Shown here in pieces: positions 11,644 through 40,214 of a stretch of 64,000 bases of DNA. Each line of letters starts with the position of its first letter. Positions within the stretch are counted from its first letter, which is position 1. A program made the translations under genes and the position numbers. A model generated the notes under the pieces. The model did not search any database. It saw only the letters and a program-made list of their open reading frames with translations, and was not told the origin of the DNA. The stretch is from Bacilli bacterium (GTDB taxonomy: Bacteria > Bacillota_I > Bacilli_A > RF39 > UBA660): contig JAFSVF010000024.1 in assembly GCA_017450205.1 (NCBI GenBank), positions 7,996 to 71,995 on the forward strand, given 5' to 3'.

Positions 11644-12084
11644 TTAATTTACTTCGCAAGGATATTCATACTCTACAGTATAATCATTAATATTATACGA
11701 ATGATCACTGAACCATTTTTCAGCATGTGCTTTAGCAGCAGCTTGATTATTACAATCAGATATTGCAATTATAATAGTTAATGATTTATCACTATTAACA
11801 TATGGGTAAAAAGCAAAGTCGTCTTCTTCAACATTTAATAAATCATTATATATTTCATAACTATCTAATATTTTGTCTTCTTCAGTTTCAGTGTTATTCA
11901 AGTTGTCACATACCTCATGCATTTCTTCTTCAGTATCAAAACTATAAGTAATATTATTTTCAGAATCATAGCATGAATATTCATTCTTCTTAGAATTATT
12001 AAAAACAAAGAATACTATTATAACAAGTACAAATGTAGTTATAAATATTAATAATGGAATTATGGTCTCTTTATTTTTCATCAT
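11644..12084 (-). CDS. membrane-anchored hypothetical protein, translationally coupled to 12081-13055
   Basis: Start moved to M9. AAGGTGG SD, and the ATG overlaps the upstream TGA (ATGA). Confidence 0.5.
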   Translation of the reverse strand: MMKNKETIIPLLIFITTFVLVIIVFFVFNNSKKNEYSCYDSENNITYSFDTEEEMHEVCDNLNNTETEEDKILDSYEIYNDLLNVEEDDFAFYPYVNSDKSLTIIIAISDCNNQAAAKAHAEKWFSDHSYNINDYTVEYEYPCEVN

Positions 12085-13055
12085 TTTACCCACCTTATAA
12101 GTTGACATAATTTCATACTAGCATTAGAACGAGCAGAATAATTAATCATTGTAGAACACCTTGTCTTTTTACAAGTTGTTGTAAATCTATGGCCTCCATC
12201 AAATACTACAGCACTACCTGTTTTTTGATCAACGCTATAGATTGAAAAAGTATGAGCTTTTACTCCGATAATATCACCAGGCAGAATCATTCCCTTTTGA
12301 ATTGCTGTTTTAACGCTCATAGTACAATTAAACTTATATTGTTTTGTATAATTAGTAATTGGCCCACTATATCCTTGAAAGCCACCATAACCTACTGAAT
12401 TTAAAGTTTTATGCTTTCCAATCGCATCAGTAACACACCAATTTGTAGGTACAACACAAGTTGTAGCAACCAATTTTCTATTTTGAGCAGCTTTTATAGC
12501 TTCAGCCCATGTCTTTTTAGAATCACCATAATTGTATTCTACTGGAGGTTGATATTTAGCAATAGCATCACTCAGTCTTCTAGAATTATTATAACAACTA
12601 GTTAAAAACTTATTACAATACTCTAAATTACCACATGAAGTAACTTGCATATCGTCAGCAGAACCACTGCCACCTCCACTACCAACCTCATACCCTGATG
12701 GATCAGAAATAATTGACTGTTGCTCATCAGTATATGGATTAATATATGAAGCATTTGTATCTGGTTTAGTAATATCGCCTTTCCAACAAGCACTAATTTC
12801 AGATTTATCATCAACAAGTGCCATTGCGGCATTAATAATAGTTGGAATCATAAATAAGACTACTAAAGCCACTACACTATTCCATATTTTCTTAGGAGTT
12901 TTTTTATTTTCTGGTTCTCTTAACATTTGAATAATATTAATAGTTAAACTAATAATTGCAAGAATTGGACCAACTATCCAAACTAAAGTTAAAAAATTCT
13001 TAAAGAAATATAAAAAACTTCCAAGTACTACATTATTACACTCCATAAGTATCAT
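12081..13055 (-). CDS. 2-TM protein with C-terminal papain-fold (CHAP/NlpC-like) candidate domain; paralogue of 32542-33789
   Basis: The N-terminal [15 protein letters not shown]...VALVVLFMIP aligns with the 415-aa paralogue. C-terminal TTCVVPTNWC ... PGDIIGVKAHTFSIYSVD gives a Cys...His pattern. Confidence 0.5.
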   Translation of the reverse strand: MILMECNNVVLGSFLYFFKNFLTLVWIVGPILAIISLTINIIQMLREPENKKTPKKIWNSVVALVVLFMIPTIINAAMALVDDKSEISACWKGDITKPDTNASYINPYTDEQQSIISDPSGYEVGSGGGSGSADDMQVTSCGNLEYCNKFLTSCYNNSRRLSDAIAKYQPPVEYNYGDSKKTWAEAIKAAQNRKLVATTCVVPTNWCVTDAIGKHKTLNSVGYGGFQGYSGPITNYTKQYKFNCTMSVKTAIQKGMILPGDIIGVKAHTFSIYSVDQKTGSAVVFDGGHRFTTTCKKTRCSTMINYSARSNASMKLCQLIRWVK

Positions 13056-14847: not shown

Positions 14848-15987
14848 CTATTCACTCTTAGTAAATTTTTCTTCTAATAATCGTACTGGGTAAGATTTAT
14901 CAGTCATTAAAGTAGATATAGATAAATCATTATGTATATTATAAATAATTTCAGCTAAATATTCTGATACATCACAAATATGTAACCATTTTTCATCTTT
15001 ATATTCTTCAGGTATATATGAAAGATTAGTAGTATATACTCCCGATAGTTTCTTTTCTTCATATAATTCTTTAAATTTATCAATTCCTCTAGTAAATAAA
15101 GCATATGTTACACAGACATAAGTATGGGAAACTCCATATTTATTTAATTCTTCAATACAATCAAACATACTTCCACCAGAAGATATCATATCATCACTTA
15201 TTATAGCAGTATATCCTTCTAGATTTTTATTTCCAGTATAATCATGACTAATAACTGGATATTTACCATCAACTAAATTATTATAATCTCTCTGTTTTAC
15301 AAAGCCACCAGCTTCTCTATGAATAAATTTAGAATTAAATGAATTTAAATAAACATTTCTTCTTCCTGTAGCGCCATTATCTGGAGCAACAAAAACTATT
15401 TTCTTTAATCTGTTTTTTGATAGATCATTTATTAAATTCTCTAAAATAGAATTAGTTGGATAAAAATTATTAAATTCCATATTACGTATAGCATGTTCTA
15501 CACCTTGATCATGAGCATCAAAAGTAATAAAACCTCTTACTCGACTCAAATTATCTATTTCCCATAAACTAGCTCCACATAATAAATTCTCTCTTGTATT
15601 CCTTCTATGTTGTCTACCAGCATATAGTAATGGCATAACAACATTTATATTATCAGCATGAGCATTACATGCACCAATACCATCTTTTAATTGAGTAAAT
15701 AAATCATTTGGAGAAGCATGATTAATAAATCCATGCATTTTATATTCTAGTGAATAATTACCTATATCAGTTAATAAATACAAATCCATACTTCTTACTG
15801 TTTCATTAATTTCAATCTTCTGATGTCCATCTTCGAAGAATAACTCCTTAAAATCAATTTGAAATGTATATTTTTCCGGATCTAAATTATACATTTTTAG
15901 CAGATGTTTATCTACCTTATCCCCTAATTCTTTAGCACTTGAGAAAACCATTAATCGTAAATTGTCCTTATTAATCTTTTTTTTCAT
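14848..15987 (-). CDS. ribose-phosphate pyrophosphokinase-like protein (long form)
   Basis: Start moved to M5 (GGAGGG SD). DAHDQG, VAPDNGATGR and a SDDMISSGGS PRPP-binding loop. Confidence 0.7.
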   Translation of the reverse strand: MKKKINKDNLRLMVFSSAKELGDKVDKHLLKMYNLDPEKYTFQIDFKELFFEDGHQKIEINETVRSMDLYLLTDIGNYSLEYKMHGFINHASPNDLFTQLKDGIGACNAHADNINVVMPLLYAGRQHRRNTRENLLCGASLWEIDNLSRVRGFITFDAHDQGVEHAIRNMEFNNFYPTNSILENLINDLSKNRLKKIVFVAPDNGATGRRNVYLNSFNSKFIHREAGGFVKQRDYNNLVDGKYPVISHDYTGNKNLEGYTAIISDDMISSGGSMFDCIEELNKYGVSHTYVCVTYALFTRGIDKFKELYEEKKLSGVYTTNLSYIPEEYKDEKWLHICDVSEYLAEIIYNIHNDLSISTLMTDKSYPVRLLEEKFTKSE

Positions 15988-16063
15988 TATACCCTCCACA
16001 TAAATAAGTATAACATAATATTAAAAAATGAAAAGACTAAAAACTTAGTCTTTAACATCTTAA

Positions 16064-17551
16064 TTACTTAGAAATATGATTTTCATTTTCTATAATATTC
16101 TCATTTTCAGCAATAATTTCACTATACTTTTTAGCAATGAATTTACTCATCGCTTTAAAAGATATTGCTTCTTTCCAATCAAATCTATAATGATCTGGTT
16201 TTTTTAAACTATCTTTATTGTCATACATAACCCAATAACCACTGTTATCTGGGAACCAACGACCGTGTGTAAAAGAATTACGTATCCTATCAGAATTATA
16301 TGTTTTATTACCGATAGTCACTTGTTCATTTTCATCTATAAAGTTTTCAAATACATAATTATAGTAATTTACTAATGCTTCTTGTTTTAAGTAGTTTGTA
16401 TCATATACAGTTTGTATGAACATATTTCGTTCTTCTTCATCTAACTCTACAAACATATTCATTATTTTATAAACTTCGTCGCCTTTATATAAACTATCTA
16501 AGATACTCTTTTGTTTTTTACTGAAAACTTGATTCTTGTTAGTTGACCCATTAATTAGAAGAGATACTAAATGAAGATTATTCTTTTCTCTTCCAAGCGG
16601 AATGGTTTTTAACGCTTCATATTCAAAAAATTCTTCCATTATTACTCCAGTTATAGATTTAACATTTGCCATGTCGGTATTCTTGTCGGTTATATACTTT
16701 AGTCTATTTAATGACAAGACTGCATTTGCCTTTTCTTTCAATGCGTTATATATAACTTTTTTTTGTAAAACATCTAGATTAATTCTTTCTGTTTTTCTAA
16801 TAAATTTTGCTTTCTCAGCATGATAATCATCAAAATTCTTATCAACGTTTCCTTTTATATGAGCTTTTATTACTTTATCTCTATCTTGAGTTTTCATTTG
16901 ATTAAATAAATCATATTTATAATATGTTGTATAAATTGTCTTCTTTAGTAAATCTAAAACACTTCCAGTTTTGTAATTTTTAACTGGTTCAGAATCAAAA
17001 TCAACACCTGAAATATTAACAAGTTTAGAACGATGTGTACAAAAAGCAGATACCATTAATAGGTTTGCTACACCCAATTCAACTTCAAAAGGAACATTTG
17101 TCCCTTGATTTGGGCCTTTAGAAGCAATAGTATTATTTAATTTTATTTTAAGTTTTGAATTATCTCCATCAATATGCATTTTATATAAATCGTTTTTACT
17201 ATGCGCAAGAGCATTTCTAATATATGTAACAATATCTCTTTCAGTAAAGTTTTCAAAACATTTTTTATTTATGTCTGAACTAGTATCAAGAAAATGTGAT
17301 GCTTCATCCAATGATACTCCTTCTAAGCCTTTCTCGAATGTATCTTTAAAATAAAACAATAACATTGAAGTACTATAAAAGGATTTTACTATCATCATTA
17401 CATCATAATCATCTATAGTTAATGATGTATCATTATTCATTAAATATCTAGAAAAAGCTTCGTAAAGAGAAATATCTTTATCTATACTCATTTCTAATAC
17501 TGATGCATATACTCTAAGACATTCTACTATTTTATACTTATCTAATTCCAT
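16064..17551 (-). CDS. two-HEPN-motif protein (candidate RNase)
   Basis: Start moved to M4 (AAAGGA SD). YIRNALAHS is encoded at 17201-17218 and RIRNSFTHGRW at 16265-16282. That gives two R-N-x3-H motifs about 310 aa apart. Confidence 0.55.
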   Translation of the reverse strand: MELDKYKIVECLRVYASVLEMSIDKDISLYEAFSRYLMNNDTSLTIDDYDVMMIVKSFYSTSMLLFYFKDTFEKGLEGVSLDEASHFLDTSSDINKKCFENFTERDIVTYIRNALAHSKNDLYKMHIDGDNSKLKIKLNNTIASKGPNQGTNVPFEVELGVANLLMVSAFCTHRSKLVNISGVDFDSEPVKNYKTGSVLDLLKKTIYTTYYKYDLFNQMKTQDRDKVIKAHIKGNVDKNFDDYHAEKAKFIRKTERINLDVLQKKVIYNALKEKANAVLSLNRLKYITDKNTDMANVKSITGVIMEEFFEYEALKTIPLGREKNNLHLVSLLINGSTNKNQVFSKKQKSILDSLYKGDEVYKIMNMFVELDEEERNMFIQTVYDTNYLKQEALVNYYNYVFENFIDENEQVTIGNKTYNSDRIRNSFTHGRWFPDNSGYWVMYDNKDSLKKPDHYRFDWKEAISFKAMSKFIAKKYSEIIAENENIIENENHISK

Positions 17552-17596
17552 TCCGATCATCCTTTAGGTTATTATTTTTACTAATTCATTATAACA

Positions 17597-17631
17597 TAAA
17601 AAGAGTAATCTTAAAATAAACTACTCTTTTA
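17597..17631 (-). terminator. rho-independent terminator after the 2H gene
   Basis: Minus strand AAAAGAGTAG-loop-ACTCTTTTT, followed by TGTTATAAT (17588-17596) for the HEPN gene. Confidence 0.6.
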
Positions 17632-17639
17632 TTGATTTC

Positions 17640-18086
17640 TTATCTCAACACCTTTTGTTTTTCATATGATGGTTCATTTAGACCATCTATAAAGAAGCCA
17701 AACTTTCCACTTATTTCAAATGGCTCAACTAATTTATTGAAATCTAAATAGCAAGTGTTGACAGCTTTACCTTTCTCAGATAAAGACATTGTAATATGTG
17801 GTACTTTTAAAATGCCGTTTTTATCATAATTTCTAAAATATTCTCTAAATTCCTGAGGAATTATAATTCTATATCCTGTATTATCTTCATCTTGTCCATG
17901 TCCATCCACTAGTACTGTTCCAGTTTCACCTACTATTTCATTAAATCTAATTATATCTTCATGTGAAGGTTTATATCCGAATGTACAGTGAAAAGATCTT
18001 GGGCTTCTTATAAGTCGTATTGGTTCTAATCTAATTAGTTTTTGTTCTTCTTCGCCTGTAAAAAACAGTCCCGTAAAACGTATCAT
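17640..18086 (-). CDS. small 2H-phosphoesterase superfamily candidate
   Basis: Start moved to M8 (AAGGGGTGAAGG SD). FHCTFG has His at 17988-17990 and PHITMS has His at 17796-17798, giving two H-x-T-hydrophobic motifs 64 aa apart. Confidence 0.5.
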   Translation of the reverse strand: MIRFTGLFFTGEEEQKLIRLEPIRLIRSPRSFHCTFGYKPSHEDIIRFNEIVGETGTVLVDGHGQDEDNTGYRIIIPQEFREYFRNYDKNGILKVPHITMSLSEKGKAVNTCYLDFNKLVEPFEISGKFGFFIDGLNEPSYEKQKVLR

Positions 18087-18109
18087 ACCTTCACCCCTTA
18101 ACGCCACAC

Positions 18110-18138
18110 ATTATACCATATTTTGGGTGATTTGTCAA
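18110..18138 (-). promoter_or_regulatory. near-consensus sigma-A promoter for the 2H gene
   Basis: Minus strand TTGACA, a 17-nt spacer ending in TGG, then TATAAT. Confidence 0.7.
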
Positions 18139-18218
18139 TTTGAATGACACTTAGCTTCTTAATTATATTATTTCTTATCACTTTTTATTTCTGCTTTATT
18201 CTAATACTTATTTATGAC

Positions 18219-19127
18219 TTATACATCTAAAAGTGCTAATATAATTACCCCAATAAGTACTAGAAATATACAACCATATTCTTTTTTGGATAGTTTTTCT
18301 TTTAAAAATACTCTTGATAATAACATAGATAATACACAATAACTACCAATAATAGGAGCAGCTACAGTAGAATTACCACTCATTGCAGTTACATAGAATA
18401 TTTCTCCAGCTGTTTCAAATAAAGCAGCAGCTAGTTTTACTTTTTCTTTAATAATAGAAAAGTTTTCTTTCTTTATTTTTAAATAGATAAATGTAACCAA
18501 GCCATATAAAGCAAATGTGTATTCATATGCAATTAAAGAAGCAGTCTCTCCAATTAATTCTAATTTATCTAAATAAATTCCATCTAAAAAAGTACCTAAT
18601 CCATCAAGTAAACAATAACCTAAAGGAAAAAGTATAGTTAAAGTTAATATTTTTTGAAAAGTATTCTTTTTATTAAATTCTTTTCTTTCTTTTTTATTTT
18701 CATTTAAACCAATAATAGATAAACAAATAATTCCTATAAAAATAGAAACCAATGCTATATAGAATGGAAAATCATAATGTTCTTTAAAGAAAATAATAAA
18801 TAATAAAGCTACTATAACACCACTAGTATTCTGAATAGGACTAGAAATAGATAATTCTAAATATTTAAGACCTCTATAACCAATTACCATACTAGCAATA
18901 TAACAAAATGATACTGGCAAATACTTAATAATATCTAGTATTTGAATATTAGTATGAGTAGTAAGTAATAAGTATGTACCATGAATACCCATTACTAGAC
19001 CAACCATGATACCAGTCTTTAAATGATTTCTATTACCTTCTCCTCTATTTCCTAATTTATAAAATAAATCAGCAATTCCCCAAAATAAAAATGTTAATAA
19101 TGTAGCTATAGCTTGCATATCTTTCAC
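18219..19127 (-). CDS. DMT/EamA-family transporter
   Basis: About 10 TM helices with duplicated EamA-like halves. Confidence 0.7.
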   Translation of the reverse strand: MKDMQAIATLLTFLFWGIADLFYKLGNRGEGNRNHLKTGIMVGLVMGIHGTYLLLTTHTNIQILDIIKYLPVSFCYIASMVIGYRGLKYLELSISSPIQNTSGVIVALLFIIFFKEHYDFPFYIALVSIFIGIICLSIIGLNENKKERKEFNKKNTFQKILTLTILFPLGYCLLDGLGTFLDGIYLDKLELIGETASLIAYEYTFALYGLVTFIYLKIKKENFSIIKEKVKLAAALFETAGEIFYVTAMSGNSTVAAPIIGSYCVLSMLLSRVFLKEKLSKKEYGCIFLVLIGVIILALLDV

Positions 19128-19171
19128 CCATAAGAATTATAACATAAAAAAATAATAAAATTATAATTTTA

Positions 19172-19651
19172 CTATTTCTTTAATATATATCCTTTATCTT
19201 TTACCATATTCATAAATGCTTCTTGCCAGGTATTAAATATTGCCGCATATTTAAGAGAATCTTGGGATTCTTTTCCTTTTAAATATTCCTGTACTTTCTC
19301 ATTTAAATATGGCTCAAATTCTTCATAAATAGAATTATCTATACTTAATCCATTACCAAATCCCATATATAAATGTTTATATTTACCATTATATAACTCA
19401 TCTTTAAGATGCTTCAAAGTATCTAACCACTTAGGAAACTGATTCAATGCGTCGTCATATGAAATATCTACTTTTTGTCCTTCTTTTCTATACATCCAGC
19501 CATCTAATCGATATATCTTATATTCATTATCTTGCCTAATAATAAATGTCGAACCATCTTCATCCCCCATTCTTCCAGGATTAGTAATGAACATGACATC
19601 ATCTTCATTAATTTTTAGAAACTCTTCTTTTGAAATTTTATGTTCTACCAT
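19172..19651 (-). CDS. hypothetical protein
   Basis: 159-aa ORF. No motif recognised. Confidence 0.4.
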   Translation of the reverse strand: MVEHKISKEEFLKINEDDVMFITNPGRMGDEDGSTFIIRQDNEYKIYRLDGWMYRKEGQKVDISYDDALNQFPKWLDTLKHLKDELYNGKYKHLYMGFGNGLSIDNSIYEEFEPYLNEKVQEYLKGKESQDSLKYAAIFNTWQEAFMNMVKDKGYILKK

Positions 19652-19765
19652 TAAATCACCTACTATATTATTAAATTCTTAAATCAAATATTATATATTG
19701 CTGTTAAATTACTTTTCTTTTCATAATTATCTCCTTATAATTATTAGTTTACAACACTATATATA

Positions 19766-20269
19766 TTAATCAGTAGAGGATGCAAGTATTATTACATATC
19801 TATTCAATAATTTATCATAAATTGATATAGCAGCAGCACCCCACCATTCTAAACCATCATCAAAATAATTAGACCATTCCACATTCCAGTCATATATTTC
19901 TAAATTATCTTTTCCTTTAGGAAATAAAATATTATTTATTTTAATAAAATCTTCTATTTTATAATTTGTCTTATGAGGTGGATCTAGAAATAAAAACCAA
20001 TATGGTCTTTTGTATCCATTATCTATATTTTTTCTTTCTTTTTCATAATCTTTTGGTAATTGAAATAGTTCTTTTGGATCAATTTCTTTATATAACATTT
20101 TATCTTTATCTATTGTTATAAAATCATCGTCTTCTTTTATTTTATTCATAGCATATAACAAAACATCTTTATGATTTAAGTTGCTTTCTATTATAAAATA
20201 ATTTAGCACACATCTATTATACTTTTTATATTCTATAAAGAATGGATCATTTATTAATTCTTTAATCAT
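19766..20269 (-). CDS. hypothetical protein (last gene of the rlmD-remnant array)
   Basis: 167-aa ORF preceded by remnant F and an AAGGATG SD. Confidence 0.45.
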   Translation of the reverse strand: MIKELINDPFFIEYKKYNRCVLNYFIIESNLNHKDVLLYAMNKIKEDDDFITIDKDKMLYKEIDPKELFQLPKDYEKERKNIDNGYKRPYWFLFLDPPHKTNYKIEDFIKINNILFPKGKDNLEIYDWNVEWSNYFDDGLEWWGAAAISIYDKLLNRYVIILASSTD

Positions 20270-20297
20270 TTTTTCACATCCTTATTTTATCTCTTCT

Positions 20298-20415
20298 TAA
20301 ATATAGTGATATTTTCGTAATGCATGTCCTAGGACGAAGAACATATCATCAACCCTCGTTCTAAGTCAACAGAAGTTATTCTTAAACACCTAGAACCATA
20401 CCATTTCTAGGGTGA
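20298..20415 (-). pseudogene. decayed copy F of an rlmD/rumA 3' end
   Basis: Minus strand ..TTGACTTAGAACGAGGGTTGATGATATGTTCTTCGTCCTAGGACATGCATTACG.. aligns base-for-base with copy B over most positions. Reads YVLRPRT.., then decays. Confidence 0.5.
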
Positions 20416-20440
20416 AGATAATATCAATATCATTAAATTA

Positions 20441-20449
20441 ATTATAGCA
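20441..20449 (-). promoter_or_regulatory. extended -10 (TGCTATAAT) upstream of remnant F
   Basis: Follows the hairpin AGCAGAGTAAAATCTGTTTTTT. Confidence 0.4.
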
Positions 20450-20652
20450 TACAAAAAACAGATTTTACTCTGCTTTTTATATAACTATTAATTACATTTC
20501 AATTATTACTGTTTCATCTTTTAAATATTTCAAATTTCTTATTTTTATTTACTCTATTAATGATAATGTTAATATCTATATGTTAATTGATTCTTTAGAA
20601 TTATATAAACATAAAAAAAACTACTATTTCTAGTAATTCTTTTTTCATATTA

Positions 20653-21303
20653 TTAAATACTTCTTCCTTCTATTTTAGTATCAGGTTCTTCACTATTTTC
20701 ATTAATCATTTCTCTTAAATCACTATTTAGCATAGCTTCTAATTCTTTAGAAGGAGAATCAATTATTCCAGCAGTTATGGTATAACCCCTACCTTCATGT
20801 ACAATTTTTTGATCAGAAATTCCCTTTTTAGGACTTATTTTACATGCTTTTTCTATATCAACTGGAACTCCTCTTCTTAATAACTCTTCAATAATAGGAA
20901 ACTTACTATCAATGGTAGTGTAATTATCTCCAGTTCTTATAATTTTAGCAAAAGTAGGAGATAATGTTTCATAATGATCAAATATACTTTCAGCACTGTT
21001 ATATATAGTATCATCAGTATATTTTAATGCTTCTTCACGAGAGATTTCTGCGCCATTATTTTGTGCATATTCCATTAGTTTATTTGCCACTAAATCTCTA
21101 TCAGGCATTTTTTCACTTAACGTGTAACCAGTATTTGAATCATGAATTACACAAACACCTAAATTAGCTGCTATATCTTTAAGATCCTTTCCTGGCTGTG
21201 AACAAACACATTCCATAAAATAATTAATCAAGTCTAAATCTATATCTTCAAGATTAGTTGAGCCTGAATGTATATACCATTCTGGGTTTTTATAATATCC
21301 CAT
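20653..21303 (-). CDS. hypothetical protein (array cassette)
   Basis: 216-aa ORF with an AAAGGAGGAA SD. Confidence 0.45.
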   Translation of the reverse strand: MGYYKNPEWYIHSGSTNLEDIDLDLINYFMECVCSQPGKDLKDIAANLGVCVIHDSNTGYTLSEKMPDRDLVANKLMEYAQNNGAEISREEALKYTDDTIYNSAESIFDHYETLSPTFAKIIRTGDNYTTIDSKFPIIEELLRRGVPVDIEKACKISPKKGISDQKIVHEGRGYTITAGIIDSPSKELEAMLNSDLREMINENSEEPDTKIEGRSI

Positions 21304-21408
21304 ATATATATTCCTCCTTTACATTATTATAAATAGTATTTCATTATTTTACAATCACTTTTTCATGACTATTAAATTCTTCTTTCATCATTTGATAAAT
21401 TTTATTTC

Positions 21409-21480
21409 TTTCTTCCTTTGTAAAACTGTGATGGACTCGTAGTGGCTTGACCATGGTTGTTTGCGTATTAAGAATAATTG
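21409..21480 (-). pseudogene. decayed copy E of the rlmD 3' end (internally deleted)
   Basis: CACTACGAGTCCATCACAGTTTTACAAAGGAAG encodes HYESITVLQRK. The 5' part AATACGCAAACAACCATGG matches copy C (GATACGCAATCAACCCTGG). The middle ~70 nt is missing. Confidence 0.6.
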
Positions 21481-21482
21481 AT

Positions 21483-22388
21483 TCACTTTTTTTCTTCTAA
21501 GCTTTTTCTAAATTCTACCTCAAATTCATTTATTGAAGTATATCTATTATTTCTATCATAATTTGTAGCCTTTAATAGCACATTATATGTTTTAGTATTT
21601 AATTCAAATTCTTCTAAATCATTAGGAATAAACATCCCTATTTCATATCTTTTATCATTATTACTTACATTGCTAAATATATCAAAAATAATTGCTCCTA
21701 GAGTAAATTCATTTGTTAATTCATCAATAGTTGCCCCTAACTCATTTTCTTCAGGAGCTTTAAGTCTTTTAGTACCATAATAATCTTTTCCTAAATCATT
21801 TTTAGTTGGAAGTTTTCTAAATAAATCTATATCACAAAAAGTTGCTTCTTCTTTTTCAAAATTATAAATGATACTACTATCATAGAAATCTACAGCAACA
21901 TATCCAGCATTAATAAATGTTTCAAAAAAAGAAAATAGTTTATATACAACATCTAATCTTTTACTAATCTCTAATTTTTTAAATTTTTGTATAGGTGTTA
22001 TTAAAGTTGAATCATTTTTATACTTTTCAAAATTCCAATGATCAAATAAACACTCTCCATCCGCATATTCAAATATAACTGCAAAGAATTCATTAATATC
22101 AAACGAATCTATATACTTAATCAAATTTTGATGATGAATACTTTTATATTTTTCTACTGCATCTTTTAATAAATCTATTGACTCTTGTTCTGAAATTTCA
22201 GCTTCTACCGTTTTAGCTCCAGCTATTTTTATAAAATACTTCTTATTATCTTTCTGAACCCCAAATGATATGCATCCACTTCCAGTTTCATCTATTACTG
22301 AAAAAACAATTCCATAATCATTTATCCAGGAAAAATCTTGATATTCTTTTAATTTAAATTCTATATTATCTATTTTACATTTAACCAT
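21483..22388 (-). CDS. protein-kinase-like fold protein (degenerate catalytic motifs)
   Basis: Start moved to M36 (GAAAGGAAATAATT-ATG). ETGSGCISFG, FIKIAG, a VDFYDSSIIYN loop, CDIDLF and a LKAPEE (APE-like) motif. Confidence 0.45.
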   Translation of the reverse strand: MVKCKIDNIEFKLKEYQDFSWINDYGIVFSVIDETGSGCISFGVQKDNKKYFIKIAGAKTVEAEISEQESIDLLKDAVEKYKSIHHQNLIKYIDSFDINEFFAVIFEYADGECLFDHWNFEKYKNDSTLITPIQKFKKLEISKRLDVVYKLFSFFETFINAGYVAVDFYDSSIIYNFEKEEATFCDIDLFRKLPTKNDLGKDYYGTKRLKAPEENELGATIDELTNEFTLGAIIFDIFSNVSNNDKRYEIGMFIPNDLEEFELNTKTYNVLLKATNYDRNNRYTSINEFEVEFRKSLEEKK

Positions 22389-22390
22389 AA

Positions 22391-22530
22391 TTATTTCCTT
22401 TCTAATACCGTGACACTCTCGCAATGGGTTGTACTTGTACGATCGCCATGTCAAAAAATAGTGTTCTTGTACGATGACATAGTGACAACACATATTCTAC
22501 TCAGGGTAGTTCTTGTATGATTGCTATGTC
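22391..22530 (-). pseudogene. decayed copy D of the rlmD 3' end with internal sub-duplications
   Basis: CATTGCGAGAGTGTCACGGTATTAGAAAGGAAATAA encodes HCESVTVLERK*. GACATGGCGATCGTACAAGTAC recurs as GACATAGCAATCATACAAGAAC and as GTCATCGTACAAGAAC. Confidence 0.65.
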
Positions 22531-22606
22531 ATTTTTTAATTACATATATATGACTCTACTTTAATTATAATACACACATTCAGCACAACTCATATACAGA
22601 AATAAT

Positions 22607-23467
22607 TTATATGATTTTTTCTTTTTTAAGATAATCCTCAAGTATTTTAATGTTATCATTAATATTATCCTTTTCTTCCGGATCTTCTACTGAAATATAA
22701 CTTATAGTTATTAATAAATTATTATATTTAATAACATAATATTTATTGAATTCAACTACTTTATGTACATATTCACTTACTTCACCATTAGCATTCTTAT
22801 AATTATTTAAAAATTTATAATCATCCTCTTCTACATATTTACATTCACTCACATAATCATCATCAATGCTATTATTTCCATTTTCATATTCATATATACG
22901 AATTGTAAAACCATAGTTACTAAACAAAACCCCATTCTTATAATTCTTTACTGCATCAGTATTATTATGTGTTAAATTATACCAACTATATTCATCATCA
23001 TTATCATATAATTTAATAATATTATATAAGAGTTTTTCACAATCATTCTTATTTTTGTCTGGATATATTTCTTTAGCTGTATATTTATATTTATTATTAT
23101 CATTTTTTTCAAACAAATATTTTTTACCATTAACTTTAACTATACTACCTTGATATTCAATATTTAACTTTTCATTACCATTTGCATCATAATAAATATA
23201 TTTTTCAGGCCATAAACCAGATGATTTATTACTATTACCATATTCACCATATAATCCATTTAAGATAAAATCATCATTTCTTCTTCCCTTAATATACAAG
23301 TCATTTAAATCTACGTTAACCAGTTTAGATAGATCTTGATATTCAACAACATTATTTGCTTTATACATAAATAATATAAAACATATTATTAAGAAAAAGC
23401 CACCTATTCCTCCCATTAATAAATATTTAATTTTTCCGTTACTATTTTCTAAATTATTCATTTTCAT
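22607..23467 (-). CDS. membrane-anchored hypothetical protein (array cassette)
   Basis: 286 aa with an N-terminal TM helix. Rich in N, Y, K and D. Confidence 0.5.
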   Translation of the reverse strand: MKMNNLENSNGKIKYLLMGGIGGFFLIICFILFMYKANNVVEYQDLSKLVNVDLNDLYIKGRRNDDFILNGLYGEYGNSNKSSGLWPEKYIYYDANGNEKLNIEYQGSIVKVNGKKYLFEKNDNNKYKYTAKEIYPDKNKNDCEKLLYNIIKLYDNDDEYSWYNLTHNNTDAVKNYKNGVLFSNYGFTIRIYEYENGNNSIDDDYVSECKYVEEDDYKFLNNYKNANGEVSEYVHKVVEFNKYYVIKYNNLLITISYISVEDPEEKDNINDNIKILEDYLKKEKII

Positions 23468-23478
23468 TTCTCCTTTTT

Positions 23479-23621
23479 TTATTCTTTCTTTCTAAAATTG
23501 CGATGTCCTCGCAATGGGTGGACACCTATTCAGGAATAGATCATTTAACCATGTTTCATATTTAAAAACATGTTCCTATACATAAAACTGCCAGGGTTGA
23601 TTGCGTATCAGGAACATATGC
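23479..23621 (-). pseudogene. decayed copy C of the rlmD 3' end (near full ~143 nt)
   Basis: CATTGCGAGGACATCGCAATTTTAGAAAGAAAGAATAA encodes HCEDIAILERKN*. The upstream part is interrupted by stops. Its length equals the last ~47 codons of intact rlmD. Confidence 0.65.
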
Positions 23622-23640
23622 TTTTTTCATTTCTAATTAT

Positions 23641-23649
23641 ATTATAACA
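23641..23649 (-). promoter_or_regulatory. extended -10 (TGTTATAAT) upstream of remnant C
   Basis: Directly after the hairpin AAGCAGATGAAAAAAATCTGCTT that follows the HTH gene. Confidence 0.5.
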
Positions 23650-23700
23650 TACAAAAGCAGATTTTTTTCATCTGCTTAGTTGTTCTTAAAAGAGAAAACA

Positions 23701-24330
23701 TTACGATTGTTTATTTTTTGTTAAGACTTTCTTATGCCAACATTTTTTGTTACAATTCGGACATTTCATTCGCCATATGCCACCTTTAGTTATTCCACTA
23801 ATACCAAAAAACATTTGATTAAAAGTTGGAATATATTGGTGCTTACATTCTTGGCATTCATAATATCCTGTTTTTCGGATGATATTAAGATTGTATACTC
23901 CGAATAAAAGCAACATTACTAAAGCAAGTGCCATAATTGTGTTTCTTATTTCCATAGGCATTTCAATAAGTATTGTTGAAAGAACTATTAATAAATATAT
24001 AACAACTCCAAGAAATGTTATGATTCTATTTAAAATAAGAATTTTCTTATTTTTGCTTTCTATTTCACGCCTCATCTCTAAAAGATTTTCCTCTGCTTGT
24101 TCATTGTAAGATTCTTTTATAATTTTCTTTGCTGATAATAGTTCATTGACATTAATATCAAGCAACTTACATAACTCTAACATAATTCCAGCATCAGGCA
24201 TAGATCTTCCATTTTCCCAATGTGAAATTGCTCTATCAGTAATATTTAGTTTCTTAGCTAATTCTTGTTGAGTCATATTTTTTTCTTTTCTTACCTTAGC
24301 AATAAATTTTCCTATTTTTTCTTGATTCAT
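23701..24330 (-). CDS. membrane-tethered XRE-family HTH protein with C-terminal CxxC...CxxC zinc-ribbon
   Basis: Start moved to M8 (GGAGG SD). MTQQELAKKLNITDRAISHWENG HTH, two TM helices, then CQEC..CPNC. Confidence 0.7.
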   Translation of the reverse strand: MNQEKIGKFIAKVRKEKNMTQQELAKKLNITDRAISHWENGRSMPDAGIMLELCKLLDINVNELLSAKKIIKESYNEQAEENLLEMRREIESKNKKILILNRIITFLGVVIYLLIVLSTILIEMPMEIRNTIMALALVMLLLFGVYNLNIIRKTGYYECQECKHQYIPTFNQMFFGISGITKGGIWRMKCPNCNKKCWHKKVLTKNKQS

Positions 24331-24429
24331 AATTATACCTCCTCTATTCAAAATTGATTATAATATAAAAATTACTAATTGTATCCACAGTGTTAGTAGA
24401 GTTTCAAATAATTTTAATATGCACTATTA

Positions 24430-24448
24430 TATGAAAATGTTTTTCATA
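24430..24448. promoter_or_regulatory. candidate operator palindrome upstream of the HTH gene
   Basis: TATGAAAA-TGT-TTTTCATA, a perfect 8-bp inverted repeat. Confidence 0.25.
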
Positions 24449-24484
24449 CTAATTATGACCTATTCCCTATAACATAGTTAAATA

Positions 24485-24527
24485 CTAAAAAATCCCTTTT
24501 TTTAATTATTTTTAGCAAAAAGGGATT
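24485..24527 (-). terminator. rho-independent terminator just after remnant B
   Basis: AATCCCTTTTT-loop-AAAAAGGGATT followed by TTTTT on the minus strand. Confidence 0.65.
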
Positions 24528-24557
24528 ATAAATATTTTTAAATAATATAACTTTTCC

Positions 24558-24690
24558 TTATTTTTCAATGGTTTTACGACATAGTACTGATACAGTTTCA
24601 ACATGCCCTGTCCTGGGGCGAAGAACATATCGTTTAACCTAGTTCTAGGTCAATAGAATATGTTTCCCAGTACAAGTTTTAACAATTACA
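24558..24690 (-). pseudogene. decayed copy B of an rlmD/rumA 3' end
   Basis: In the frame ending at TAA it reads YVLRPRTGHVETVSVLCRKTIEK*. The intact gene ends NMFPRTYHCESIVVLERK*. A 5-nt insertion after GATATGTT shifts the frame, and there are stops upstream. Confidence 0.7.
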
Positions 24691-24693
24691 TTT

Positions 24694-25224
24694 TTATTTT
24701 CCAAAAGAACATAGTGAATTTCCTTTTTCAGAAACATAACAATTCCAATAACTATAACCAACTTCTACATAACCATTTTGAAAAGCGTTGGCATACATTC
24801 CATAAGCACTACAATGAATATTGGTATCTGAAATTGTACAATTATTACTATCAAATATTTTTAATAAAACATTTTTATTATGTTCATAATATGATGAATC
24901 AGCTCCTTTTAATGAAACCATATTATTATCAATAATAAATTCAACATAACTTTCTTTTACAATATCATTTTTTATAATGTGCTTATAATACATTTTCTTA
25001 TTGTTAAAATCTTTTATAGCAACTTCACTTGACTTGTATTGTTTTATACTACTTGGAATTTTTTTACCAATTGTAATCAGCTTATCACAATGATCTTTTC
25101 CTTCACAATAGTTTATTGTATATATAGTACCAGTAAAACCATTTTTTTCACTTTTTCTATTATATAGAAATATTATTATTGAAATTAATACTATAATTGT
25201 TATTATAATAATTATTTTCTTCAT
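24694..25224 (-). CDS. membrane-anchored Cys-containing hypothetical protein (first cassette)
   Basis: 176 aa with an N-terminal TM helix. Its ATG lies 2 nt after the rlmD stop, and its SD (GAAAGGAAG) is formed by the last rlmD codons. Confidence 0.5.
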   Translation of the reverse strand: MKKIIIIITIIVLISIIIFLYNRKSEKNGFTGTIYTINYCEGKDHCDKLITIGKKIPSSIKQYKSSEVAIKDFNNKKMYYKHIIKNDIVKESYVEFIIDNNMVSLKGADSSYYEHNKNVLLKIFDSNNCTISDTNIHCSAYGMYANAFQNGYVEVGYSYWNCYVSEKGNSLCSFGK

Positions 25225-38106: not shown

Positions 38107-40149
38107 CTACTTTTGTTTTTTGTTTCCTGTTTTAACCCAACCATTATTAAGTAATGTTAAGTCATTTTCAGTACTCCATCTATATTTAGTTATTGCTCCA
38201 CTAATTAAATCTCTAGTCTTTGTACTTTGATAACAAACAGTACCATATAAAGGTTCTCTTCTAGTAGCTTTATCAGTTACAGTTACATAACCATAAATTG
38301 GTATTGTTTTATATACATATTCACCACAACTAGCTTCTGTAGTTGTTGTTGTACTAGATGATGTAGAAGTTGAAGTAGAACTTGTTACATTACCAGGTGT
38401 AGTTGTAGAAGATACACTACTTAATCCACCTACATATGTATATGAATCATAATAATAATTAGGTAATGTTTGACAAGTATCTGAACAATTACTATAGTCA
38501 GCACCTACAAATTTATAACTCTTTGATGCTGTATCAGATGGTGGATTTTTATAACTTGCTCTACCATTATATACCCAAGATCCAGTTGAATGTCTTGTTA
38601 CTGATGTAATTGTATCAGTTTCAGTATATGTAGTAGTTGTCTTTGTAACATAGATTGTCTTATTAATTTCTACATAATTATATTTAGAACATGATTTCTT
38701 TGTATAAGATCCAGTTCTTCTTAATTCAGATCTTTCTCTTGCATAAGTTTTATCATATTCACCAATTTTTTGTTTTTGTTTATAGATTTGTAATTTTCTT
38801 AAACAATTAACATCACTGTTACTACAATTAATTTCTTTAGTAGCACAGTCAGTCTTTGCCCAAGCACTCCAATCTGTCCAATTTGAGAACTCTGCATCCT
38901 TAGTCTTTTTATACTCATATAAGTATTCTATTTCTGGTTCACAGGCTTTCTTGTAAGCTTCATAAGAAACTACATTACCTTTGTCATCATACCATTTACC
39001 ATCGAACTTACCACAATAGTGATGTTCTTCTTGACCACAGGCTTTCTTATAAGCTTCATAAGAAACTACATTACCTTTATCATCATAGTATTTTCCATCA
39101 TATTTAACACAATAGTGTTTTTCTTCAGGAATAGTACAATCTTTTTCATACTTCTCTTTTGTTGTTACTTTTCCATCACTATCATAATATTTACCATTAT
39201 AGTATACACAATAGTGATGTTCTTCAGGTTCACAAGCTTTCTTATATTTTTCATAAGAAACTACATTACCTTTATCATCATAGTATTTACCATCATATTT
39301 AACACAATAGTGTTTATTTTCAGGTTTATCACATACTTTCTTATATTCTAAGTATGAAACAACTTTACCCTTATCATCATAATATTTACCATCATGTTTA
39401 ACACAATAATATTTCTTATCTGGTTTTGTGATACATTGTTTCTCATATTCTGCTTTAGAAACAACCTTACCATTTTTATCATAGTATTTACCATTTTTAT
39501 ATTGACATTTTACTGTTACATGAATAACAGGTGTAACATCCTTTGGTGGATAATAAACTCCATTATCAATATAACCCTTTATTGGTACATAACTTGTTAC
39601 TGTTGATCCTTTAATAGGAACATTAGTAGTTAATTGCTTTTGACATAGTGCTCCTTCACAATATGTGTAGCAACCTAGATGAACTAGAATATAATCTTCT
39701 CTTTCACTATCTTTTAAGTTAACTTTTAGAATATATTCATCATCAACTTTAGTTATTTTTACATAACTCTTTTCAACATCACAAGCTTTATTATTCTTAT
39801 CTATTAATGCAATGATAATTTTCTTACCAATCATATCACTTAATGTCATAGTATCTGAATCACCTACATTTTTAGGTAATCTTTCATCTGTATAATATGA
39901 TATAGCAGCATTTTTCATCCTCTCTAAGTTGTCTGCAAAAATTTGTGATGTAAGTGCACTAATTCCAGTAGTATCACAAGTACTAGTAGTGCAAGCTTTT
40001 CCATCTTTATTGTTATAGTTAACTACTGATGGTTTCATAAACTTAGGTAGTAACCAACACAATAAAAAGACAAATATTATAACTAGAATTAGTTTTAATA
40101 TAAAGTCTCTAATTGGAAAACCTCTTCTTTCATAATCATTTACGTGCAT
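38107..40149 (-). CDS. membrane-anchored protein with six Cys-bracketed ~32-aa repeats and a Ser/Thr-rich region
   Basis: Start moved to M16 (GAGGGGAG SD). TM helix ILKLILVIIFVFLLCWLL, then repeats and an STTTPGNVTSSTSTSTSSSTTTTTE stretch. Confidence 0.6.
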   Translation of the reverse strand: MHVNDYERRGFPIRDFILKLILVIIFVFLLCWLLPKFMKPSVVNYNNKDGKACTTSTCDTTGISALTSQIFADNLERMKNAAISYYTDERLPKNVGDSDTMTLSDMIGKKIIIALIDKNNKACDVEKSYVKITKVDDEYILKVNLKDSEREDYILVHLGCYTYCEGALCQKQLTTNVPIKGSTVTSYVPIKGYIDNGVYYPPKDVTPVIHVTVKCQYKNGKYYDKNGKVVSKAEYEKQCITKPDKKYYCVKHDGKYYDDKGKVVSYLEYKKVCDKPENKHYCVKYDGKYYDDKGNVVSYEKYKKACEPEEHHYCVYYNGKYYDSDGKVTTKEKYEKDCTIPEEKHYCVKYDGKYYDDKGNVVSYEAYKKACGQEEHHYCGKFDGKWYDDKGNVVSYEAYKKACEPEIEYLYEYKKTKDAEFSNWTDWSAWAKTDCATKEINCSNSDVNCLRKLQIYKQKQKIGEYDKTYARERSELRRTGSYTKKSCSKYNYVEINKTIYVTKTTTTYTETDTITSVTRHSTGSWVYNGRASYKNPPSDTASKSYKFVGADYSNCSDTCQTLPNYYYDSYTYVGGLSSVSSTTTPGNVTSSTSTSTSSSTTTTTEASCGEYVYKTIPIYGYVTVTDKATRREPLYGTVCYQSTKTRDLISGAITKYRWSTENDLTLLNNGWVKTGNKKQK
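38935..39513 (-). repeat. tandem coding repeat, 6 units of ~96-99 nt
   Basis: The consensus unit is HYCVKYDGKYYDDKGNVVSYEAYKKACEPEE. The units are also highly similar at the DNA level. Confidence 0.85.
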
Positions 40150-40190
40150 ATTTCCGAACTCCCCTCTGTTCACATGTAGTTGATATAATA

Positions 40191-40214
40191 ACAAAAAAAC
40201 CTTGAAAAGTCAAG
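40191..40214 (-). terminator. terminator after the Smr gene
   Basis: CTTGA-CTTT-TCAAG hairpin followed by GTTTTTTTG on the minus strand. It overlaps the TGA stop. Confidence 0.5.

Follow-up and report, generated by a model that had tools for sequence, protein, structure and literature searches.

We analyzed a 64,000-nucleotide (nt) stretch of contig JAFSVF010000024.1 (positions 7,996 to 71,995; GenBank assembly GCA_017450205.1), hereafter the window, from a Bacilli metagenome-assembled genome (MAG). The window contains a stand-alone gene for a protein with two RNxxxH motifs, one in its N-terminal and one in its C-terminal domain (Table 1). These motifs have the canonical form of HEPN domain motifs, which is Rx4-6H in which the arginine is followed by a polar residue (N, D or H) (PMC3710099). 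We give a probability of about one half to the reading that this two-motif protein represents a new family of single-chain ribonucleases (RNases) with two HEPN domains, each with an R-[N/D]-x3-H motif, that likely act as conflict or defense toxins.

The longest reading of the open reading frame (ORF) starts at the first ATG (16064..17560, minus strand) and encodes 498 amino acids (aa). A start at the second ATG, which gives 495 aa, agrees with the homologs and with the NCBI record MBQ3298298.1, and this ATG has an AAAGGA Shine-Dalgarno sequence 9 nt upstream. A preliminary description of the DNA, made from its letters, had given a length of ~495 aa and the positions of both motifs; the length matches the second start, and both motif positions are exact. 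Residue numbers such as R115, H120, R427 and H432 follow the 498-aa reading, and the motif 1 residues become R112 and H117 in 495-aa numbering. We found no further RNxxxH motif in the window (57 ORFs of at least 150 aa, 18,394 aa in total). The chance expectation is ~0.015 such motifs per 495 aa, which corresponds to a probability of ~1e-4 for two or more.

Table 1. The two-motif gene, its domains and signals, and other features of the window. Positions are those of the window, and residues follow the 498-aa numbering.
Feature	Position	Strand	Remarks
Two-motif coding sequence	16064..17551	minus	495 aa, stop codon included; 'hypothetical protein' MBQ3298298.1 of a Bacilli MAG
Motif 1, YIRNALAHS (R115/N116/H120)	17201..17218	minus	Putative N-terminal HEPN catalytic motif
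Motif 2, RIRNSFTHGRW (R427/N428/H432)	16265..16282	minus	Putative C-terminal HEPN catalytic motif
N-terminal domain, residues ~4-180	17021..17551	minus	Helices, motif 1, three-stranded beta insert, helix 164-177
Middle helical region, residues ~181-295	16676..17020	minus	Least conserved part; 44-60% identity with the sister-species ortholog
C-terminal domain, residues 296-498	16067..16675	minus	From AlphaFold2 domain model and profile comparison
Extended -10 promoter-like element, TGTTATAAT	17588..17596	minus	Read straight from the sequence
Terminator-like hairpin and U-run, upstream	17599..17630	minus	Ends the upstream 148-aa gene; -11.8 kcal/mol, z = -4.05
Terminator-like hairpin and U-run, downstream	16025..16061	minus	Directly after the stop codon; -11.5 kcal/mol, z = -4.0
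prs-like gene	14848-15987	minus	379 aa
148-aa ORF	17640-18086	minus	155 aa from an upstream GTG
Promoter of the 148-aa ORF	18138-18110		TTGACA-17-TATAAT
Variable region upstream of the start codon	~17552-24700
Intergenic stubs	19680-19732, 20283-20426, 24591-24664
324-aa ORF	12081-13055	minus
695-aa ORF	38107-40194	minus
Tandem repeat	38939-39494		Inside the 695-aa ORF

An initial search yielded nine relatives (40-98% identity), in all of which both motifs are invariant. We then identified 94 proteins at E <= 0.001, each representing a cluster at 50% identity, in a profile search of 1.84 billion cluster representatives. Full-length matches are almost all 418-601 aa long and contain both motifs. 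We aligned 76 full-length members, whose identity to the query falls as low as 15% and whose mean column identity is 19%. Only R115, H120, R427, H432 and D447 are invariant in this alignment, and D73, N116, Q266, P321 and R434 are conserved in at least 90% of members. Each motif in the family takes the form R-[N/D]-x3-H, with the asparagine or aspartate in the place of the canonical polar residue. Judged by the alignment, the invariance of R and H in both motifs looks like the signature of catalytic residues, and the RNase suggested in the preliminary description would be expected to keep these residues in its homologs, as it does. A second database search, with the 76-member alignment, returned only the nine relatives already found.

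The family is small and consists of proteins of ~420-600 aa from very AT-rich gut and rumen Bacilli. No name for it exists in the searched copies of Pfam, NCBIfam (release 20), PADLOC (2.0) and PHROGs (4), and a full-text literature search found no paper on it. Sequence and profile searches of the PDB with the protein gave no match. Nine members (P0024, P0026, P0029, P0031, P0045, P0049, P0067, P0081 and P0099) form a subgroup of 540-601 aa in which motif 2 lies near residue 380-400 and is followed by an extra C-terminal extension of ~170-200 aa; this extension had no family match.

HEPN motifs sit where helix 3 ends and run into the loop that leads to helix 4; an upstream helix carries a conserved acidic residue, and inserts between helices 2 and 3 are frequent (PMC3710099). 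The AlphaFold2 (AF2) models of the two-motif protein are consistent with this arrangement. In the full-length model (predicted local distance difference test, pLDDT, 80.5; predicted template modeling score, pTM, 0.85), R115 and N116 end helix 107-119 and H120 comes next. R427 and N428 end helix 423-431, again with H432 next, both in this model and in a model of the C-terminal domain (residues 296-498, 88 sequences, pLDDT 93.3). Each motif leads into a short beta meander and, after it, a long helix. D73 is located in a helix upstream of motif 1. The C-terminal domain runs from a conserved IP..GxEK loop (P321) through a helical insert to motif 2, a beta meander that contains D447 and a long final helix. 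As modeled, both motifs would thus occupy the canonical HEPN position, at a helix end entering a loop, with a conserved acid upstream of motif 1. We infer two divergent HEPN-type domains in the chain.

Profile comparison suggests a weak similarity to pEK499_p136 (Pfam accession PF18736), the only HEPN family with detectable similarity to both halves of the protein. We built a comparison family from WP_000528932.1 of plasmid pEK499 (NC_013122) and aligned it with each half by hhalign. The N-terminal half scored P = 0.003 and the C-terminal half P = 0.0015-0.003 (overall range to 0.0035), as against P = 0.2-0.5 for reversed controls (0.2 for the C-terminal half). In both halves the alignments hold their register from the motif across the strands up to the last helix, at an hhalign probability of just 10-18%. 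One of the 76 members, P0005, reached 22.7 bits against PF18736 over the motif 1 region, which is below the cut-off of 26.6 bits; the query had no such match, and faint precomputed pEK499_p136 matches are also listed. We therefore do not assign the family to PF18736, as its best relative falls short of the gathering threshold.

The two-motif gene is a monocistronic unit. A promoter-like element, TGTTATAAT, precedes it; a consensus promoter scan did not list this element because it lacks a good -35 element. Terminator-like hairpins lie on both sides of the gene. The flanking intergenic regions measure only 64-88 nt (88 nt upstream) and are filled by these promoter and terminator signals. We found no CRISPR-like array or cas gene in the 64-kb window and no CRISPR-like array in 23 related loci. 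Neither the abiF motif (Rfam accession RF03085) nor any other Rfam match was found near the gene in the window or in the nine related loci scanned. There is also no conserved partner gene: the neighbors differ in every sampled context and have no similarity to one another. These results uphold the earlier picture of a gene that stands alone with its own promoter-like signal and without CRISPR components, and extend it to antitoxin genes and abiF RNA. A type II toxin-antitoxin pair was considered and rejected, since no small partner gene is conserved in the sampled contexts and the hairpins flank the gene.

A sister species (locus L016) encodes an ortholog at the same position, upstream of the prs-like gene. 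The prs-like proteins of the two species are 95% identical, whereas the two-motif proteins are 65% identical. Synonymous divergence (dS) is 0.87 for the two-motif gene and 0.73 for its prs-like neighbor, and nonsynonymous divergence (dN) is 0.231 versus 0.028, or eight times higher, so that dN/dS is 0.27 versus 0.04. The motif regions and the N-terminus are best conserved between the species, and residues 251-300 are conserved least. Synteny with the sister species stops exactly at the start codon of the two-motif gene. Within the species, two upstream arrangements occur, one with an EamA gene and the 148-aa gene and one with a UvrD helicase gene, and both keep the link to the prs-like gene.

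We sampled thirteen distinct neighborhoods of family members, the window included. Mobile-element or toxin markers lie within one or two genes of the family member in seven of the thirteen. These contexts contain, respectively, tyrosine integrases and a Mob_Pre relaxase; a serine recombinase and ToxN; MazEF; helix-turn-helix and Bro-N genes; integrase remnants and a Fic/DOC gene; integrases and ParA; and a Fic/DOC gene and a winged-helix domain. Because relatives adjoin integrase, ToxN, MazEF, Fic and Bro-N genes, a role in defense or conflict is plausible, and the rate of protein evolution points the same way. The preliminary description had proposed a compact defense or stress RNase, possibly of the AbiD/AbiF-to-Cas13 lineage; the neighbors of the relatives lend plausibility to the first part, and the second part is not supported, as discussed below.

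Some of these loci can be described more closely. Fic/DOC genes directly adjoin relatives in two independent loci (L030, 8866-9861; L033, 7279-8250). ToxN is next to another relative across a 357-nt gap (L008, 6469-6972), and MazEF adjoins a further one (L019, 602-1176). These four loci look like small toxin or defense islets in AT-rich Bacilli. The G+C content of all sampled loci is 24-28%.

The gene downstream of the two-motif gene encodes a ribose-phosphate diphosphokinase-like protein that is longer than typical Prs and has a weak PRTase-CE match; the two genes stay together in each of the three configurations observed in the lineage. A variable region (loci L025, L026 and L016) lies upstream of the start codon, and other genes occupy it in the sister species. 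In L016, short intergenic stubs from this region of the window recur between different genes. The upstream 148-aa ORF is preceded by a perfect promoter and contains two H-x-T motifs (FHCTFG and PHITMS) that resemble the 2H phosphoesterase signature. HEPN cleavage yields 2',3'-cyclic phosphates as end products, and 2H phosphoesterases act on these. The 148-aa ORF had no Pfam, PHROGs or PDB match. It was considered as a functional partner of the two-motif gene and rejected as an obligate one, because one of the two strain configurations lacks it, as does the sister species.

Two features elsewhere in the window may be mentioned. A 324-aa protein has a sub-threshold N-terminal T4SS_pilin match (24.6 versus 26.6 bits) in an otherwise housekeeping stretch. 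The 695-aa ORF contains a tandem repeat with a 96-99-nt unit in ~5.6 copies (74% matches), and its product would be a repeat-containing protein.

The most likely activity of the two-motif protein is metal-independent endoribonuclease cleavage that is predicted to leave 2',3'-cyclic phosphate ends. Both motifs are probably needed, because both are invariant. The two may lie opposite one another in a single intramolecular site, as in Cas13 and Cas13an, or each motif could pair with its counterpart in a homo-oligomer, as in DARNA, Csm6 and AbiF. For its work the protein would need no guide RNA, no RNA antitoxin and no dedicated partner gene, which implies self-inhibition that is released by a trigger. 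Its own variable middle region or its oligomeric state might hold the protein inactive until that trigger arrives, and the fast-evolving middle region would be the natural candidate for a sensor. The most likely role is that of a conflict or defense toxin of the abortive-infection type. We also entertain, more tentatively, a specific form of this proposal, in which the family is an independent, non-CRISPR lineage of compact single-chain double-HEPN RNases with one intramolecular site, and the protein would be an abortive-infection or stress RNase, self-contained and carrying its own sensor.

Several results weigh against a double-HEPN conflict toxin, and part of them concern the fold. Foldseek found no match for the full model in PDB and BFVD or for the C-terminal domain model (pLDDT 93) in PDB, so the HEPN fold is not confirmed. 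Neither the query nor any of the 76 relatives scored above threshold with a family model of Pfam, NCBIfam, PADLOC or PHROGs. An hhalign comparison of the N-terminal with the C-terminal half aligned only eight motif columns, and internal duplication therefore cannot be shown. When the motif was removed, only the C-terminal half kept a marginal signal to pEK499_p136 (P = 0.011). The protein might accordingly carry the motifs without being an active RNase, as an inert or differently acting helical protein such as a nucleotide- or nucleic-acid-binding scaffold, or as a protein with a non-HEPN fold. Inactive HEPN domains have a precedent in AbiA (PMC13064643). We nevertheless regard this explanation as unlikely: R and H of both motifs are invariant even among the most divergent members and are combined with N or D after R, which is the catalytic pattern. 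The silence of Foldseek carries little weight here, because Foldseek also missed the link between Cas13an and Cas13 (PMC12165695). Of the HEPN folds that the preliminary description had envisaged around both motifs, the helix-end placement is thus seen in the AF2 models, and a structural match in PDB or BFVD is not.

The remaining contrary results concern the role. Six of the thirteen neighborhoods, the window included, are of housekeeping character; the G+C content of the two-motif gene (26.3%) is close to the window mean (26.5%); dN/dS of 0.27 indicates purifying selection; and we found no relatives in phage, plasmid or IMG/VR collections. Composition likewise does not support a recent horizontal transfer into the host genome. 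A serious rival, although one that we consider improbable on balance, is a lineage-specific housekeeping HEPN-type RNase of small-genome, AT-rich Bacilli that functions in the maturation or turnover of rRNA, tRNA or mRNA; in eukaryotes, HEPN RNases such as Las1 perform housekeeping tasks. Such an enzyme would suit a chromosomal gene of native composition that keeps its synteny with the prs-like gene in both strain configurations and in the sister species, diverges at synonymous sites much like its neighbor, has a dN/dS of 0.27 and has no antitoxin or partner gene. A position just downstream of rplM-rpsI, which recurs in two distant members, would suit it as well. It fits less well with the rarity of the family (94 clusters among all representatives searched), with nonsynonymous change about eight times faster than in the neighboring gene, with members that appear as cargo beside integrases and also beside ToxN, MazEF and Fic genes, and with an upstream boundary that is a strain-variable breakpoint. 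A third explanation, an RNA-regulated or RNA-guided relative of AbiF, Cas13an or Cas13e that is controlled by a small RNA nearby or elsewhere in the genome, seems to us very improbable. The size range of the family (418-601 aa versus 429-577 aa for Cas13an), the two HEPN motifs per chain and the resemblance of motif 2 (IRNSFxHGRW) to Cas13an HEPN2 (IRNxxAHGGxF) are in keeping with it. The lack of arrays and Rfam matches at the loci scanned argues against it, as do flanking gaps that are taken up by promoter and terminator signals, a Cas13an profile similarity that ends at the motif and the absence of Abi_2 matches.

Many immune systems, among them Cas13, Csm6, RNase L, AbiF, ApeA and DARNA, use HEPN RNases as their killing modules, and nearly all of these enzymes build their active site by dimerizing. 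One-chain double-HEPN proteins are rare outside CRISPR systems and have been proposed as the starting point of Cas13 evolution. If the members of the two-motif family are conflict toxins, as we propose, they could yield a new single-gene defense system from poorly studied gut and rumen Bacilli, provide an example of HEPN activation under self-regulation or serve as a compact RNase scaffold. An intramolecular site would make the family a second natural example, outside type VI CRISPR, of the fusion proposed as the first step toward Cas13, and the importance of the family would rise if both this site and a defense phenotype were true. A housekeeping enzyme would instead represent an unusual bacterial use of HEPN chemistry.

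HEPN toxins and one-chain double-HEPN proteins outside CRISPR are already known kinds of protein; the two-motif family itself is unnamed. The pEK499_p136 family has an R-N/H-S-x-A-H motif that, like the motifs of the two-motif protein, lies at a helix end and is followed by beta strands and a final helix. A conserved hydrophobic stretch that runs into Pro-Lys/Glu also lies upstream of the motif in both. The pEK499_p136 'HEPN family nuclease' occurs on plasmids and in defense neighborhoods (PMC3710099). It differs in that its proteins are ~160 aa long, have a single HEPN domain and occur mostly in Proteobacteria; the two-motif protein is three times longer.

Cas13an, a miniature Cas13 and type VI CRISPR effector, has, beyond its similar size, two different HEPN domains per chain, and G-G/R and an aromatic residue come after its second motif. 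It is also, like the two-motif family, invisible to Foldseek and to hidden Markov model (HMM) searches seeded with known Cas13. The two-motif protein has two motif-bearing domains in one chain. Cas13an genes, however, adjoin CRISPR arrays and their proteins bind a CRISPR RNA (crRNA) of ~60 nt, whereas the two-motif family has neither an array nor a conserved RNA at the loci scanned. Against a comparison set of eleven Cas13an sequences (at most 400 residues of each), hmmsearch gave no more than 5 bits and hhalign aligned 15 columns, at motif 2 only. Identity with Cas13 or Cas13an was rejected, as the window and the 23 related loci contain no array and the similarity is confined to the motif. 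Yoon et al. described twelve AlphaFold database (AFDB) clusters of one-chain double-HEPN proteins, two of which are bacterial and not CRISPR-linked. The family matches these two 'intramolecular HEPN dimer' clusters (Yoon et al., Table S2) at the motif level only.

AbiD/AbiF, a type III toxin-antitoxin, are HEPN RNase toxins of Firmicutes with an R-N-x3-H motif and links to mobile elements and phage defense. AbiF, a homodimer with one motif per chain, is neutralized by an upstream non-coding RNA (ncRNA; RF03085), whereas the two-motif protein has two motifs per chain. We found no Abi_2 (Pfam accession PF07751) match for the query or any of the 76 members. Identity with AbiD/F was thus rejected on the lack of an Abi_2 match and of abiF RNA and on the two motifs per chain. 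On this result and a Cas13an similarity confined to the motif, the kinship with the AbiD/AbiF-to-Cas13 lineage raised in the preliminary description is not supported.

DARNA (PD-T7-3) has a similar plan. The PADLOC PD-T7-3 model had no match for the query or the 76 members, and identity with DARNA was rejected on this basis. DARNA is a single-gene abortive-infection system of 456 aa that is mostly helical; its own structure keeps it inactive, and no antitoxin gene accompanies it. Its N-terminal motif (R117-x4-H122) lies at nearly the same position as R112-H117 of the two-motif protein in 495-aa numbering. In DARNA a single HEPN motif is combined with a non-catalytic C-terminal domain, and the sites arise through dimerization within a dodecamer, whereas the two-motif family carries a second invariant motif.
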